This document shows positions 26,019-62,969 of a stretch of 64,000 nt of DNA, piece by piece (within the stretch, counting starts at the first letter, position 1; each line of letters starts with the position of its first letter). The notes beneath the pieces were generated by a model that saw only the letters and a program-made list of their open reading frames with translations, made no database searches and had not been told where the DNA came from. The stretch lies in the IMG/VR virus record IMGVR_UViG_3300043394_000609; one strand, written 5' to 3'. The position numbers were made by a program, and so were the translations under genes. The DNA is from a virus (lineage: Duplodnaviria > Caudoviricetes).

Positions 26019-26678
26019 ATGGCAACACAGTTAGAAATTATCGCAGAAAAATTGAGACAAGAACATATCTCAAAAAATACCTATGTAGATAAAAAAGAAT
26101 ATAGTATGACGCATAAAAATGCGTTATCCAATGGTGATGAAAAAGGTAAAGGTGAAAGTGGTTCAATGATTGGTTCTAGTGTTGATATACAGAATAGAAT
26201 TAATAGTTTATCTAGAAACACATATAATGAATCAAACGGATACGGTATCACCAATAAAAACGCAATAGCAGATGGTGACGAAAAAGGTAAAGGTGAAAAC
26301 GGTATTAATGTCGGTTCAATAACAGATATTAAAGAAAGAAATACGTTAATCGGTAGAAACGCTTATAATTCATTAAATGGTTATAATTCTAATAATGAAA
26401 ATGCATTATCAAGCGGAGACGAAAAAGGTAAAGGTGAAAAAAATGGTCAAGTTGGGTCATTAAGTGATATCTTAAATCGTACTGATAGCGTTGCTAGAAA
26501 CACATATAATGAATCAAATGGATATGGGCTTACTCACGCAAATGCAATGTCTGATGGTGATTTAAAAGGTAAAGGTGAAAATAATGGCCAAGTTGGGTCT
26601 TCTGCGGATATTCTATTAAGAACAGAAGTTATCGCCAGAAACAAATATAATGGATCAAAAGGATATCCAGATTTTTAA
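26019..26678 (+). CDS. Repeat protein with four 47-aa units (GDEKGKGE core)
   Basis: AAAAGGTAAAGGTGAAA recurs at 26141, 26282, 26423 and 26564 (141-bp period). Confidence 0.8.
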   Translation: MATQLEIIAEKLRQEHISKNTYVDKKEYSMTHKNALSNGDEKGKGESGSMIGSSVDIQNRINSLSRNTYNESNGYGITNKNAIADGDEKGKGENGINVGSITDIKERNTLIGRNAYNSLNGYNSNNENALSSGDEKGKGEKNGQVGSLSDILNRTDSVARNTYNESNGYGLTHANAMSDGDLKGKGENNGQVGSSADILLRTEVIARNKYNGSKGYPDF

Positions 26679-55093: not shown

Positions 55094-55888
55094 TTATCTC
55101 AGAGATAATTTTTTATCGGTAATAGTGTTTTTCAGGTCCATTAATTTTTTAATATAACCATTTCGTCTCAATAATTTGAAGGTTAAATTCTCATAAGAGT
55201 ACTCCCCACCTTTTTCAAGACCACTTTGTCTAAATTTTTTTATTTTATCTTTTAGATCGTTTATTTGTTTTATTGTGTCGTCACTTTTACTTTCTTTCTC
55301 AATTAAAGAATCTATTTGTTTAGCAAAATATTCACCTTTTTCTAGGATTTTAGCTTCGTCAATATCTTCTTTATCTGGTGATGGGTTTACAACCCATTCA
55401 TTATGTAATACAGAATAAACACCAGAAGACACATGTGGTTCGTCGATATCTTGAACATAAAGTTCAACTTCAAAACCTTTTATGGTTACGTCATGTGTAT
55501 TGTTCCATAATTGTTTTTTACCGTCAAAGAAATCTTTAATGATTTTTTTAAATGCCGTTGAATCTATTTTTTTAGATGTTAATAGTTCATCCATATCAAC
55601 TAGTATATGTAAATCTACATCAGAATACTCTGACCAGTTATAATTAGATAATGACCCTGTTAATACCAAATCATGCACGAATACATCTAAATCCAAATAT
55701 TCAATAAACTCATCCGCAATTTCAGTTAGTTTATCTCTTATTTCTTTCTTCATTAGATACCCCTCATCAATTTTATCGAATATATCCAGACATAAAGTAT
55801 CCTTAGTCTTAAACGTATTCACAATTTTCTTGTCTTCTTTTGGATCAGACAATTCCATTAATTCATCGATTAGAGTCGTTGATTTCAT
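55094..55888 (-). CDS. DNA polymerase beta-superfamily nucleotidyltransferase
   Basis: hGS...DhD signature LTGSLSNYNWSEYSDVDLH; third acidic residue likely in VELY. Confidence 0.85.
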   Translation of the reverse strand: MKSTTLIDELMELSDPKEDKKIVNTFKTKDTLCLDIFDKIDEGYLMKKEIRDKLTEIADEFIEYLDLDVFVHDLVLTGSLSNYNWSEYSDVDLHILVDMDELLTSKKIDSTAFKKIIKDFFDGKKQLWNNTHDVTIKGFEVELYVQDIDEPHVSSGVYSVLHNEWVVNPSPDKEDIDEAKILEKGEYFAKQIDSLIEKESKSDDTIKQINDLKDKIKKFRQSGLEKGGEYSYENLTFKLLRRNGYIKKLMDLKNTITDKKLSLR

Positions 55889-56133
55889 TAATTTAGTTTT
55901 TTATGTACGTATTTTGTTTTAATGTGGGCGTTAAAGAATGCTCCCTGTGATTCACTCATTCTGAACTTAGTAAACAATTCCCACGGCACTCCCACATATT
56001 CATAAATACCACCATAATTAAATGTGATAACTAATATTGATGTTTCGGTGTTAAAACTAGCACCTTTAATGTTTGAAGACACAATATCAACGGATATAAC
56101 GCTTCCTTCTATTTTTTCTGATGTTATTGCCAT
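55888..56133 (-). CDS. KTSC-domain protein
   Basis: SSNI........L.I.F..G..YEY..VP......F..SES.G.FFN..IK..Y pattern. Confidence 0.9.
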   Translation of the reverse strand: MAITSEKIEGSVISVDIVSSNIKGASFNTETSILVITFNYGGIYEYVGVPWELFTKFRMSESQGAFFNAHIKTKYVHKKLN

Positions 56134-56181: not shown

Positions 56182-56212
56182 TTTGTTCATGTTATTATTA
56201 TTTGTACGTTTG
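56182..56212 (+). promoter_or_regulatory. Bacteroidota-type sigma promoter for clpC
   Basis: Exact TTTG-N19-TACGTTTG. Confidence 0.7.
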
Positions 56213-56229: not shown

Positions 56230-58242
56230 ATGTCAATACTAAACTATGAACCAGAGGAAGGCCCAAAAGCTAACCCTAGAAGTAAAAAACCAATGTCGAA
56301 CACACCTATTTTAGATAATTTCTCTAGGGATTTAATCAAAATGGCACAAGATGGTAAAATAGATCCAGTTGTAGGTAGAGACGTTGAAGTAAAAAGAATT
56401 GCTCAAATTTTATCTAGAAAGAAGAAAAACAATGCAGTTATTGTTGGAGATGCCGGTGTTGGTAAATCTGCTCTAGTTGAAAAGTTAGCTTTGATGATAA
56501 CAAATGGTGATTGTCCATCTAATTTATTAGATAAACGAATTGTTTCATTAGATTTAACTTCATTAGTTGCTGGAACCAAATATCGCGGACAATTCGAAGA
56601 AAGGATTAAAGCAATTCTACAAGAAGTTGAAGACAACCCAGATGTGATCATTTTTATTGATGAATTACATACAATGGTTGGTGCAGGTAATTCAAGCGGA
56701 TCTATGGATGCGGCTAACATTTTAAAACCAGCATTGGCTCGTGGTGAAATCCAATGTATTGGAGCAACAACGTTTGATGAGTTTAAGAAACATATCGAAA
56801 AAGATGCAGCATTGGTTAGACGTTTTCAAAAAATTATTTTGAAAGAACCAACTCAAGAAGAAACAATTGAAATATTAGAAAACCTATTACCATCATATCA
56901 AGAGTTTCATAGGGTTTCATATGAACCTGAAGTTGTTGAAACCGTTGTTAGATTATCTGGTAGATATATGACAGATAAACAATTCCCAGATAAAGCAATT
57001 GATGTTCTTGACGAATTAGGGTCTGAAAAACGCGTTATTATTAAGGTTCCGGAAGTAATTGAAAAATTAAAAGCCGAAATTTCTGAAATTAGAGAGCGTA
57101 AAATTCAAGTTGTTAAAACACAACAATATGAACAAGCAGCAACCCTAAGAGATGAAGAAAAGAAAGCGGAATTGAAGTTGGAAAAAGAGAAAGAGAAATG
57201 GTTAGATAACCAAAAAACAAACCTTATTCCAGTAACTGTTGATGATGTTTATGATATGGTATCATCAATTGTTGGTGTGCCGATTTCTAAAATGGACGCT
57301 AAAGAAGTAAATAATTTACTTACATTAGAAGAAAGTTTGGGTAAAAAAGTTATTGGTCAAGAAAATGCTATTTCAATCATTTCTAAAGCAATTAGAAGAA
57401 ATCGTGTTGGTATTAAAGATAGCAATAAACCAATTGGTTCATTTATCTTTTTAGGTTCTACTGGTGTTGGTAAAACATTTTTAGCTAGAACATTAGCTGA
57501 ACAAATTTTCGGGAATAAAGACAATGTAATCCGAGTTGACATGAGTGAATTCATGGAAAAACACGCAGTATCTAGATTAATTGGATCACCTCCGGGTTAT
57601 GTTGGTTATGAAGAAGGCGGTCAATTAACTGAAAAAGTTAAGAATAACCCATTTTCTGTTATTTTATTTGATGAAATAGAAAAAGCACATAAAGACGTAT
57701 TCAATCTATTACTTCAAATTTTAGATGAGGGACATTTAACAGATTCATTCGGTAGAAAAGTTAATTTTACAAATACATTGATTATTTTAACATCTAACGT
57801 TGGTGCTAAAAAAGTAAGTGAATTTGGTGGTGGTGTTGGTTTCAGCACAAATAGTTCAACTGAACAACAATATGAGGTTAAAAAGACAATGATACAAAAA
57901 TCATTGAAACAACAATTTAACCCAGAATTTTTAAATAGAATTGATGATGTGATTTTATTTAACACACTTCAAGAAGATTCATTGATGAAAATTGTTAAAT
58001 TAGAAGTTGATAAATTGGTGGTTAGATTAAAAGAAAAAAAGTTCGACATCACATTTGACGAAACTGTTTTGAAAGAGATAATTTCTAGAAATAAAGAAGA
58101 ACAATATGGTGCTAGACCAATAAAACGTATCATACAATCGTTATGTGAAGATTACTTAAGTGACGAGATATTAAGAGGTACAATTGTTGAGAACAAACCA
58201 GTTATAATTGAATTTAAAGACGAATTAGTGGTTAAATCATAA
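56230..58242 (+). CDS. clpC: ClpC-type AAA+ ATPase lacking the N-terminal Clp-repeat domain
   Basis: Two AAA modules (GDAGVGKS/IDELH and GSTGVGKT/FDEIEKAH), UVR-type middle domain (YEQAATLRD) and ClpP-docking loop VGF. Confidence 0.9.
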   Translation: MSILNYEPEEGPKANPRSKKPMSNTPILDNFSRDLIKMAQDGKIDPVVGRDVEVKRIAQILSRKKKNNAVIVGDAGVGKSALVEKLALMITNGDCPSNLLDKRIVSLDLTSLVAGTKYRGQFEERIKAILQEVEDNPDVIIFIDELHTMVGAGNSSGSMDAANILKPALARGEIQCIGATTFDEFKKHIEKDAALVRRFQKIILKEPTQEETIEILENLLPSYQEFHRVSYEPEVVETVVRLSGRYMTDKQFPDKAIDVLDELGSEKRVIIKVPEVIEKLKAEISEIRERKIQVVKTQQYEQAATLRDEEKKAELKLEKEKEKWLDNQKTNLIPVTVDDVYDMVSSIVGVPISKMDAKEVNNLLTLEESLGKKVIGQENAISIISKAIRRNRVGIKDSNKPIGSFIFLGSTGVGKTFLARTLAEQIFGNKDNVIRVDMSEFMEKHAVSRLIGSPPGYVGYEEGGQLTEKVKNNPFSVILFDEIEKAHKDVFNLLLQILDEGHLTDSFGRKVNFTNTLIILTSNVGAKKVSEFGGGVGFSTNSSTEQQYEVKKTMIQKSLKQQFNPEFLNRIDDVILFNTLQEDSLMKIVKLEVDKLVVRLKEKKFDITFDETVLKEIISRNKEEQYGARPIKRIIQSLCEDYLSDEILRGTIVENKPVIIEFKDELVVKS

Positions 58243-58300
58243 TTTTTCCCTGAAATTAGTATCAATATTTGGGTTTTTCTTAAAAACACATATATTTATA

Positions 58301-58405
58301 TGTTACAGGTTCTCTTTGTCGTTAACCTTTTCGTTTTTTTAAAAAGTAAGTGGGGTTGAACCTGCTGAAAAGACCTTAAACCCCGACATCTAGTTGGGGT
58401 TTTTT
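58301..58405 (+). ncRNA. Candidate structured small RNA (H-type pseudoknot) with its own late motif and terminator
   Basis: TATTTATA at 58293-58300; stems CAGGTTC/GAACCTG and CTTTTC/GAAAAG; terminator 58378-58405; no ORF. Confidence 0.5.
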
Positions 58406-58413
58406 ATTTAATA

Positions 58414-58445
58414 TTTGGTTTTATGTGTTTTTTTGTTTAAATTTG
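58414..58445 (+). promoter_or_regulatory. Bacteroidota-type sigma promoter for the lipoprotein gene
   Basis: Exact TTTG-N20-TAAATTTG, 4 nt before ATG 58450. Confidence 0.7.
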
Positions 58446-58449
58446 CACT

Positions 58450-58617
58450 ATGAAAAAATATACATTTATTTTGGCTGTTGGTGTTATGTTAACATTGGCG
58501 GCATGTGGTAAAGGATCGACCACAAACGAAGAAAAAGATTCTACTGCAGTAGATAGTTCAGCAGTTAAAGTTGATAGCACAGCCGCACCAGCAGTTGATT
58601 CAACTCAAACAAAATAA
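58450..58617 (+). CDS. 55-aa lipoprotein (not in the ORF track)
   Basis: MKKYTFILAVGVMLTLAACGKGSTTNEEKDSTAVDSSAVKVDSTAAPAVDSTQTK; lipobox LAAC; flanked by its own promoter and terminator. Confidence 0.85.
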   Translation: MKKYTFILAVGVMLTLAACGKGSTTNEEKDSTAVDSSAVKVDSTAAPAVDSTQTK

Positions 58618-58623
58618 GAAATC

Positions 58624-58650
58624 GACCGGTTTATTCCGGTCTTTTTTTTT
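58624..58650 (+). terminator. Intrinsic terminator after lipoprotein gene
   Basis: GACCGG-TTTATT-CCGGTC followed by a run of at least 9 T. Confidence 0.8.
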
Positions 58651-58717
58651 TATTTAAATATTTTTTATATCTTTACCCCGAATATGACAATAGTTATTAA
58701 TATTAAAACATATTAAC

Positions 58718-59143
58718 ATGAATACAGAAAAAGACTGGGTTGGTGATTTAATATTGTTACGTGGGCTTCCAGGTAGTGGTAAATCAACAATTGGCGATAT
58801 AATGCTTTTTACGGGGCAAAACAATCAAGATGTTTTATCAGCAGATAATTTCTTCATTGATAGAGACGGTAATTATCTTTTTGATGCTACAAGATTAAAA
58901 GAAGCACATAATGATTGTCAACAAAAATGTGCTGAACGTATGAAGATGCAATTTTCAAAAATTGTTATTGCAAATACCTTTACTCAAGAATGGGAAATGG
59001 AAAAATATTTTGAAATGGCTGACAGGTACCGTTACCGTGTTCATTCATTAATAGTTGAAAATAGACATGGTAGTCAAAATATCCATGACGTTCCTGAAGA
59101 TAAACTGGAACAAATGAAAAATAGATTTGAAGTGAAACTTTAA
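58718..59143 (+). CDS. P-loop polynucleotide kinase-like protein (AAA_33 / N4BP2-like)
   Basis: RGLPGSGKST, SAD.FF, NTF...WE and H.VP....M..RFE; adjacent to the RNA ligase gene. Confidence 0.8.
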   Translation: MNTEKDWVGDLILLRGLPGSGKSTIGDIMLFTGQNNQDVLSADNFFIDRDGNYLFDATRLKEAHNDCQQKCAERMKMQFSKIVIANTFTQEWEMEKYFEMADRYRYRVHSLIVENRHGSQNIHDVPEDKLEQMKNRFEVKL

Positions 59144-59154
59144 ATAATAACATA

Positions 59155-60180
59155 ATGTTACATAAACTAGAAGAATACCATGATCAAGGATTGGTTTTCA
59201 AACAAACACACCCAACACTAGATTTAACTATTTGGAACTATACACCTATGGTTCAATATGAAAGATTATGGGACGATATTACAATACAATGTCGTGGGTT
59301 AGTAACAAATTCAGAAGGTAAAATAATTGCAAGACCATTTAAAAAATTCTTTAATTACGAAGAACATAAACCAGAAGATATTCCAAACGAAAACTATGCT
59401 GTTTATGAAAAAATGGATGGTTCATTAGGGATTCTATTTTATTATGCTGACCAATGGATAATGGCAACTCGTGGGTCATTTACCTCACCACAAGCAATAA
59501 AAGGTGCGGAATTATTATCAAAATATGATGGTTTATCAGATTTATTCAAATCGTACACTTATTTGTTTGAAATTATATACCCTGAAAATAGAATTGTTGT
59601 TGATTATAATGGGGAAGAAAAATTAGTTTTAATTGGTGCAATCGAAACAAACACAGGAATTGAAGATGATATCACGATCTATTCTCATTATGGTTTTGAT
59701 GTTGTGACATTATATAAAACATGGGGAGAAACTTATGATTTACTTAAAAAAGAAATCCCTAATGATAAAGAAGGTTATGTTATTGCTTTTAAGAATGGGT
59801 TTAGAATGAAGATTAAGGGTACTGAATATATTCGTTTACATCAAATATTAACAGAAACCTCAAGTCGCGATATTTGGGAATGTCTTAAAAATAACAAGTC
59901 ATTAGATGAGATTTTAGATGAGGTTCCAGATGAGTTCTATACTTGGGTTAAAGAAACGGTAAATGAGTTACAAACACAATTTGATTCAATTAAATTAGAA
60001 GTTGAAAATGAATTTAAAGAATTGATAAATAAAAAAGAATATGCTGATAAAATAAAAGACAATAAAAATCGACATTTCTTATTTAAAAGATTAGATTCGT
60101 ATTCACAACAACTCGATGATATGATCTGGGATTCAATTTATCCGCCGTACACAAAACCTTTCACTAATATTGAAAAATAG
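59155..60180 (+). CDS. T4 Rnl1-like RNA ligase
   Basis: CRGL, ARPF.KFFN, EKMDGS, ATRGSF, FEII.P.NRIVV.Y, EGYV and KIKG.EY motifs. Confidence 0.92.
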   Translation: MLHKLEEYHDQGLVFKQTHPTLDLTIWNYTPMVQYERLWDDITIQCRGLVTNSEGKIIARPFKKFFNYEEHKPEDIPNENYAVYEKMDGSLGILFYYADQWIMATRGSFTSPQAIKGAELLSKYDGLSDLFKSYTYLFEIIYPENRIVVDYNGEEKLVLIGAIETNTGIEDDITIYSHYGFDVVTLYKTWGETYDLLKKEIPNDKEGYVIAFKNGFRMKIKGTEYIRLHQILTETSSRDIWECLKNNKSLDEILDEVPDEFYTWVKETVNELQTQFDSIKLEVENEFKELINKKEYADKIKDNKNRHFLFKRLDSYSQQLDDMIWDSIYPPYTKPFTNIEK

Positions 60181-62738: not shown

Positions 62739-62969
62739 TTAATTAGTTTTTTCTGGTTCTTCATACCAGATATTATCTGGGTTGTTTTTATATAACCCAT
62801 CTATTTTCCACATGATCTCGTTTGAGATATGTCTTTCTCTTTCTTCATTAGTAAAATGTGTGTAAATCATAAACAAATCAAACGTAAATGCTAATGATAC
62901 CCAAACACATACAAAATAAAGGTATCCAACCAATACCTTTTCTCCGATTTTTTTTAATAATTCTTTCAT
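62739..62969 (-). CDS. Small single-pass membrane protein
   Basis: One hydrophobic segment; late motif at 62982-62989. Confidence 0.6.
   Translation of the reverse strand: MKELLKKIGEKVLVGYLYFVCVWVSLAFTFDLFMIYTHFTNEERERHISNEIMWKIDGLYKNNPDNIWYEEPEKTN

Follow-up and report, generated by a model that had tools for sequence, protein, structure and literature searches.

A predicted non-coding RNA gene downstream of clpC in giant freshwater phages and its candidate small RNA partner

Tree and colleagues are said to have identified, in 2014, AgvB and AsxR as prophage-encoded anti-sRNAs of enterohaemorrhagic E. coli; these RNAs sponge host core-genome sRNAs in an Hfq-dependent manner in Enterobacteria. 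The c4 antisense RNA of phages P1 and P7 (RF01695) employs two short segments that pair around the ribosome-binding site of its target, is processed from that target's own transcript (icd-ant) and blocks the translation of a real ORF. The sRNAs of the DapZ/MicL type are 3′-UTR-type sRNAs with an internal promoter, and ToxI-like RNAs consist of tandem pseudoknot repeats of ~36 nt directly upstream of a toxin gene. To our knowledge, hardly any sRNAs are known from phages of the Bacteroidota, a lineage that is without Hfq and whose ribosomes ignore Shine-Dalgarno sequences. Phages that encode the ribosomal protein bS21 have been described from freshwater, with genomes of up to ~330 kb, predicted Bacteroidetes hosts and Clp/chaperone genes, in a paper that mentions no small or non-coding RNAs (PMC9723584, Chen et al. 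2022).

In the current study, a 64-kb stretch of DNA (hereafter termed the window), an AT-rich giant-phage contig of ~31% GC, was analysed with regard to an element located directly after clpC, which is designated here the post-clpC RNA (Table 1). The element resembles AgvB and AsxR in that it is phage-encoded, possesses its own promoter and terminator and is predicted to base-pair with an sRNA instead of an mRNA, while it differs from these RNAs, with which it has no homology, in that both partners are phage-encoded, the predicted host belongs to the Bacteroidota and the partner, termed E1, carries a Shine-Dalgarno sequence. With c4 it shares the (predicted) pairing of two short segments around the ribosome-binding site of the target; in contrast to c4, it is a separate gene that lies, where measured, ~24 kb from a non-coding partner, and the C4 model yielded no match in positions 57900–58800 (Rfam, E up to 10). 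As in RNAs of the DapZ/MicL type, the post-clpC RNA directly follows a protein gene, with which it would share a terminator, and a promoter of its own is located just upstream, yet here the promoter lies past the stop codon and the RNA stays intact in loci with a further gene between it and clpC. The phages concerned are of the same kind as those encoding bS21: four relatives carrying the post-clpC RNA encode this protein and on this ground fall within or close to the freshwater Bacteroidetes bS21 phages (PMC9723584), whereas the 64-kb window is without a bS21 gene.

Table 1. Coordinates of the post-clpC RNA, its parts and the neighbouring genes and boxes (positions of the window)
Feature	Position	Strand	Basis or detail
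Weak nucleotidyltransferase match (NTP_transf_2)	55094-55888	-	
KTSC-domain protein, divergent from clpC	55888-56133	-	Pfam PF13619, E = 1.9e-17
Host-type TAnnTTTG box of clpC, TACGTTTG	56205-56212	+	
clpC, ClpC-type AAA+ gene	56230-58242	+	
Promoter-type ('late' class) box of the post-clpC RNA, TATTTATA	58293-58300	+	core TATTTAT in 54/54 relatives
Post-clpC RNA gene (predicted), ~100 nt	58302-58405	+	covariance model R1: 111 bits, E = 3e-19
P1, small 5′ hairpin; outer helix AGGU/ACCU (58307-58310/58325-58328), inner C-G	58307-58328	+	RNAalifold consensus
Block 2, E1-complementary, inside P1	58312-58322	+	pairs with UCGRCAAAGGG of E1
Block 1, E1-complementary, P1 3′ strand and U-rich linker	58326-58336	+	exact complement of AAACGAAAAGG
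P2, 5-bp hairpin (58350-58354/58361-58365)	58350-58365	+	covariation
Conserved single-stranded linker, AAAGACCU core	58367-58377	+	columns invariant or almost so
Intrinsic terminator: 10-bp stem, 5-nt loop, U tract	58378-58405	+	terminator scan
Promoter-like box of the lipoprotein gene, TAAATTTG	58438-58445	+	TAnnTTTG match
Mini-lipoprotein ORF, 55 aa	58450-58617	+	
AAA_33 P-loop kinase	58718-59143	+	
Rnl1-type RNA ligase	59155-60180	+	

Using ClpC as bait, 80 IMG/VR loci were retrieved whose ClpC shares 74–83% amino-acid identity with that of the window, and the element was found in every one of these loci that includes the region, at 72–87% nucleotide identity. A covariance model derived from the alignment detected homologues of the post-clpC RNA in 97 IMG/VR phage loci, the weakest of which score 73 bits and have a higher GC content, and model R1 found a single copy in the window. 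In the alignment of 54 non-redundant relatives that was employed for identity and covariation, mean pairwise nucleotide identity reaches 87% in the RNA body and 93% in the terminator, compared to 61% in the DNA before the promoter region and 63% in the spacer after the terminator. On the + strand no ORF of at least 30 aa was found between positions 58243 and 58449. The length of the RNA varies from 96 to 107 nt among relatives, an ATG at the position where the window has one (58300) occurs in only 8 of the 54 sequences, with a frame that differs relative to the conserved core, and an ATG-started closed ORF is absent altogether from 25 of 62 distinct sequences; this variable length, rarely kept ATG and unconserved frame argue that the post-clpC RNA is non-coding. 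The possibility that the 19-aa ORF starting at 58300 represents a small peptide was rejected on account of the same distribution and frame of its ATG.

No family of Rfam 15 reached its gathering threshold in positions 57900–58800 (E up to 10), the best scores being 15–24 bits against thresholds of 40–117, with E values of at least 0.04 and all driven by the terminator; the remark of an earlier, sequence-only reading of the window (the first-pass annotation), which did not recognise the element as a known family, agrees with this Rfam search. ARAGORN detected no tRNA or tmRNA genes in the whole window, and a DNA search of the phage collection with positions 57900–58800 returned no match. Among the listed matches to an 18-nt pattern were 80 bacterial loci, none of which contains the post-clpC RNA according to the covariance model, and these are chance matches. 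Taken as a whole, the predicted unit amounts to far more than chance. Based on its identity relative to both flanks, its 97 homologues, its single copy in the window and its lack of a conserved frame, we conclude that the post-clpC RNA is a real, selected and free-standing predicted non-coding gene in a large giant-phage family from freshwater. The RNA family is new, being without an Rfam entry and undescribed within the published literature that is searchable, and represents at least a new Rfam family and a marker of this phage clade; across this widespread clade the RNA is ~90% identical, whereas ClpC shows only the amino-acid identity given above.

Wherever upstream sequence is available at a locus in which the RNA was found, clpC precedes it (37 of 37 loci), at a distance of 41–89 nt if the two are adjacent and of ~720 nt where a gene is inserted. 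Among the loci baited with ClpC, a sub-clade (L022 and L067) has a convergent gene of ~265 aa inserted after clpC and before the RNA (L022:4987-5784; L067:2655-3446), with the box, the RNA and the terminator all intact. The mini-lipoprotein gene begins 31–55 nt past the terminator in most loci and is followed by the kinase and RNA ligase genes, the last two being missing in the most distant relatives. In five members (L114, L123, L156, L155 and L101) clpC and the RNA are kept and no lipoprotein homologue was seen; in three of these five distant members a convergent gene abuts the terminator. As separate observations, RNA-repair-like genes (NTP_transf_2, AAA_33 kinase and Rnl1 ligase) are located on both sides of the RNA, and KTSC-like ORFs of 80–81 aa precede clpC by a few hundred bases in most relatives inspected.

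The 8-mer TATTTATA, present at 58293–58300 where the first-pass annotation had placed a late motif, has 18 copies in the window against 14.9 expected, which is no over-representation, and its TATTTAT core is also located upstream of the RNA in the most divergent members. The window contains 38 copies of TATTTAT, 25 of them intergenic, and ~20 sit 4–38 nt upstream of a gene on the same strand; the copy at 58293 is an outlier, as the next ORF is 150 nt away. Several of the TATTTAT boxes in the window lie only 4–6 nt from a start codon. The terminator that had been noted at 58378–58402, together with its T run, was recovered by the terminator scan; 99.8% of its alignment cells are paired, and G.U to A-U as well as A-U to G-C changes were seen. 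Given an invariant TATTTAT box, a conserved terminator and no conserved frame, the post-clpC RNA is a predicted sRNA, and the independent small RNA gene proposed in the first-pass annotation is borne out to the extent that a TATTTAT-type box in all relatives and its own terminator would indicate one. Since the terminator scan revealed no terminator between the clpC stop codon (58242) and the RNA terminator, the latter probably ends clpC transcripts too, and the host-type box of clpC makes read-through into the RNA element likely. The claim that the next gene has its own promoter agrees with the TAnnTTTG match upstream of the lipoprotein gene. This box lies 4 nt before the ATG and is conserved, at ~7 nt in most relatives (alignment A1 columns 225-240); a box so near to the start codon implies a leaderless or nearly leaderless message.

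Contigs from four freshwater metatranscriptome runs match clpC identically, and one contig (58369–58584) begins within the RNA, crosses the terminator and reaches the lipoprotein gene, with no contig over 58255–58368. As such contigs cannot reveal an RNA of ~100 nt, its start or its end, they constitute evidence in neither direction, and it is from the sequence that we infer the transcription of the post-clpC RNA and its timing.

Consensus folding and covariation support a fold composed of P1, P2 and the terminator. In P1, 98.8% of cells are paired, a distant clade exhibits one compensatory U-A to A-U change, and the apical loop UUUGYC is invariant; in the window an inner U-A pair of this hairpin is replaced by a U-U mismatch. 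All five pairs of P2 change on both sides with 98.9% of cells paired, a covariation that was reached by none of 500 shuffles. The hexaloop GUUGAA of P2 (58355–58360) is invariant, and its stem is 7–8 bp long in distant members. An all-against-all column scan identified no covarying partner of the AAAGACCU linker and, with respect to an extra helix or pseudoknot, retrieved only the phylogenetic signal of one divergent clade and the extension of P2. Single-sequence folds gave z = -2.4 for the + strand and -2.9 for the - strand, values that are not informative about the strand, and no tandem or direct repeats were found in the RNA.

The 5′ region of the post-clpC RNA is nearly invariant, and a column scan revealed no intramolecular partner that explains this invariance. 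In two relatives, G001 (324 kb) and G002 (~269 kb), the 10-mer complementary to 58326–58335 occurs once besides the antisense strand of the RNA itself, on the opposite strand and 23.9 kb (G001) or 24.4 kb (G002) downstream of the RNA. This site belongs to E1, a unit of roughly 150 nt with a TATTTATA box at its head and a covarying 5′ hairpin. The complement of block 1, AAACGAAAAGG, is located just 5′ of the Shine-Dalgarno sequence of E1 and overlaps it, thereby running into a perfect AAGGAGGUG, and the complement of block 2 follows 8–15 nt further on, where it makes up the 5′ side of a strong hairpin. The Shine-Dalgarno sequence of E1 is not followed by a conserved ORF, and the box, the hairpin, a terminator in several genomes and this lack of a conserved ORF make E1 a predicted non-coding sRNA as well.

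Loci of E1 were gathered by means of a two-block pattern demanding most of both blocks, and 18 of these were matched to post-clpC RNA loci on the same contig. Block 1 pairs in all 18 same-contig pairs, a single A-to-G change giving rise to a U.G wobble, while block 2 pairs over 10–12 bp, its variable position being U-A in 13 pairs, U.G in three, C-G in two and C.A in none. The two-sided covariation between the RNA and E1 is thin, resting on one position and two C-G cases, because both blocks are nearly invariant. Predicted duplexes range from -29 to -36 kcal/mol (z = -3.2 to -5.1 versus shuffled E1). In block 2 of the window the last base is U and not A, which leaves 10 of 11 pairs, and the RNA of the window is predicted to pair with E1 of other genomes at -25 to -31 kcal/mol. 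E1 was not found within the 64-kb window, nor in the records of G004, G005 and G007, which are 14–38% complete; look-ups by exact protein matches for sequence past the 64 kb yielded no more than a contig of 8.7 kb. E1 is presumed to lie outside the window in this genome, for which the partner of the RNA is extrapolated from relatives.

On balance we lean towards the post-clpC RNA being a trans-acting sRNA that serves as a two-part antisense partner of E1 around its Shine-Dalgarno sequence. The observed basis for this reading consists of the conservation of the gene, its fold, its linkage to clpC and the complementarity to E1 in the 18 same-contig pairs; pairing with E1 in vivo, its direction and its consequence are what we infer from these. 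Transcription of the post-clpC RNA would start from the TATTTAT-type ('late') box and stop at the intrinsic terminator of the gene, with the 3′ half (P2, the conserved linker and the terminator) acting as a stable structural or handling module and the 5′ domain (the weak P1 and the U-rich linker) as a two-part antisense seed. Both seed blocks would pair with E1 on either side of AAGGAGGUG, partly covering the Shine-Dalgarno sequence. Such pairing would probably begin between the single-stranded linker of the RNA and the single-stranded stretch 5′ of the E1 Shine-Dalgarno sequence, and would proceed by opening P1 and, in E1, the 5′ arm of the hairpin; this hairpin is strong and its 5′ arm is what block 2 targets, so that strand invasion would be needed for access. 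One RNA may thereby neutralise or remodel its counterpart in the fashion of an anti-sRNA or sponge. In this sense the suggestion of a decoy in the first-pass annotation holds loosely, the post-clpC RNA being a putative antisense partner of a decoy-like Shine-Dalgarno RNA. Pairing with E1 leaves both the invariant GUUGAA loop and the AAAGACCU linker unexplained. If the pairing is real, it would constitute an RNA-against-RNA control circuit that is wholly virus-encoded and may offer a handle on the reprogramming of translation by bS21-encoding phages.

Other readings of the element were weighed against the same evidence. That the RNA acts mainly on host or other phage mRNAs, with E1 as a seed competitor, a sponge or an incidental match, is in our estimation rather unlikely. 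A conserved 5′ seed followed by a hairpin and a terminator fits a generic base-pairing sRNA, a U-rich seed would suit the A-rich translation start regions typical of Bacteroidia, and the 3′ hairpin arm of E1 resembles the seed of the post-clpC RNA. However, a k-mer target scan of the window produced 9-10-mers at chance level only (a match at 62934 on the - strand falls within the gene of a small membrane protein), RNAduplex, applied to every translation start region of the window, returned spurious long AT-rich duplexes that are uninformative, E1 is the only other 10-mer match in G001 and G002 (~269–324 kb), and a two-block search of 401 sampled Bacteroidia genomes found no two-part site. A protein-binding or scaffold RNA, with the UUUGYC and GUUGAA loops and the twice-occurring ACCUU as recognition sites and possibly linked to ClpC, appears improbable. 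It would account for loops that are invariant though the stem of P2 varies freely, for a conserved linker that has no RNA partner and for the strict linkage to clpC in 37 of 37 loci, but there is no candidate protein, no known protein-binding RNA motif matches, and the two-block complementarity to E1 would be left unexplained. The constant position of the RNA past clpC when the two are adjacent, with no intervening terminator, and the read-through that the host-type box of clpC makes likely would likewise be expected of a conserved 3′ UTR with a terminator that stabilises or processes clpC mRNA. Such a cis element is very improbable in view of the invariant TATTTAT box directly upstream of the RNA and of the L022 and L067 loci, which keep box, RNA and terminator despite the intervening convergent gene.

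A role of the terminator in a leader, riboswitch or attenuator of the mini-lipoprotein gene is suggested by the short distance of this gene from the terminator in most loci and by the one metatranscriptome contig that runs through the terminator into it. Synteny contradicts it: the five distant members without a lipoprotein homologue keep the RNA, which rules out a leader or riboswitch for a gene that is not constant downstream, and a conserved TAnnTTTG-type box belongs to the lipoprotein gene itself. The terminator/antiterminator switch that the first-pass annotation had considered does rely on a GGGGTT/AACCCC pairing that is possible in the window, but its antiterminator arm, the 5′ arm of P2, varies in many of the 54 relatives against a CCCC partner that never changes, so that the pairing is not maintained, and this reading is scarcely tenable. 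The same annotation had drawn an H-type pseudoknot on a first stem (58306-12/58358-64) and a loop pairing (58327-32/58367-72). Both complements, of 7 nt and 6 nt, are present and perfect in the window, yet the stem has standard pairs in 75% of cells, is not above shuffled controls, shows no covariation, is used by neither the minimum-free-energy nor the consensus fold and overlaps the covarying P2, with which it is mutually exclusive. Of the loop pairing, four invariant pairs are left, for which covariation cannot test the helix, and in 6 of 54 sequences one of these four is lost with no compensating change; a sixth pair exists in this window only, owing to an extra A. A pseudoknot RNA is hence hardly credible, and the first-pass fold is wrong in key elements: the collection of homologues and check of covariation that it had proposed sustain the conservation and P1, P2 and the terminator, and leave stem 1 and the pseudoknot unsupported.

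Two further classes named in the first-pass annotation were considered and rejected. A type III (ToxI-like) antitoxin is at odds with the absence of tandem or direct repeats and with an unsupported pseudoknot, and the downstream gene encodes a lipoprotein that some members lack. A packaging RNA of the phi29 type has neither an Rfam match nor a supporting context, the neighbours in this giant phage being clpC and RNA-repair genes.

Returning to the pairing of the post-clpC RNA with E1, the Shine-Dalgarno sequence of the partner raises the possibility of a link to the ribosome. Published work on Bacteroidia indicates that bS21 conceals the anti-Shine-Dalgarno tail of their 30S subunits, which is put to use only in the absence of bS21 (PMC7797042, PMC9976891), and that Shine-Dalgarno pairing serves essentially just rpsU autoregulation (PMC7797042, PMC9976891, PMC13000453). 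Such sequestration makes a phage non-coding RNA with a perfect Shine-Dalgarno sequence conspicuous. The RNA and E1 might form a two-RNA device acting on host ribosomes, in which E1 captures or marks bS21-free subunits or competes with the rpsU leader and the post-clpC RNA switches E1 off or on late, although we regard this as unlikely. The rpsU leaders of five potential host genomes (Flavobacteriaceae/Pedobacter) carry a strong Shine-Dalgarno sequence and only a ~6 bp match to block 1; together with the absence of a two-block site from the Bacteroidia genomes searched, this makes a ribosome-directed role speculation.

Some minor features of the two RNAs and of the window may be mentioned. In G001 and G002, E1 (L313:1330-1400, L314:1330-1400) adjoins the 3′ end of an apparent tRNA gene on the opposite strand. 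In a divergent phage, E1 (L511) has a duplicated AACGAAAA, and the post-clpC RNA on the same contig (L123:1646-1750) contains an extra U-rich/CGUU segment with which pairing is possible, a hint that both partners may have lengthened the duplex in concert. In other genomes, an AUAAGU segment in the RNA is often accompanied by ACUUAU in E1. Elsewhere in the window, the 9-mer AAAAGGTAA is present at 26141, 26282, 26423 and 26564, with an exact spacing of 141 nt inside the ORF 26019-26678, which suggests that the predicted protein contains a 47-aa tandem repeat.
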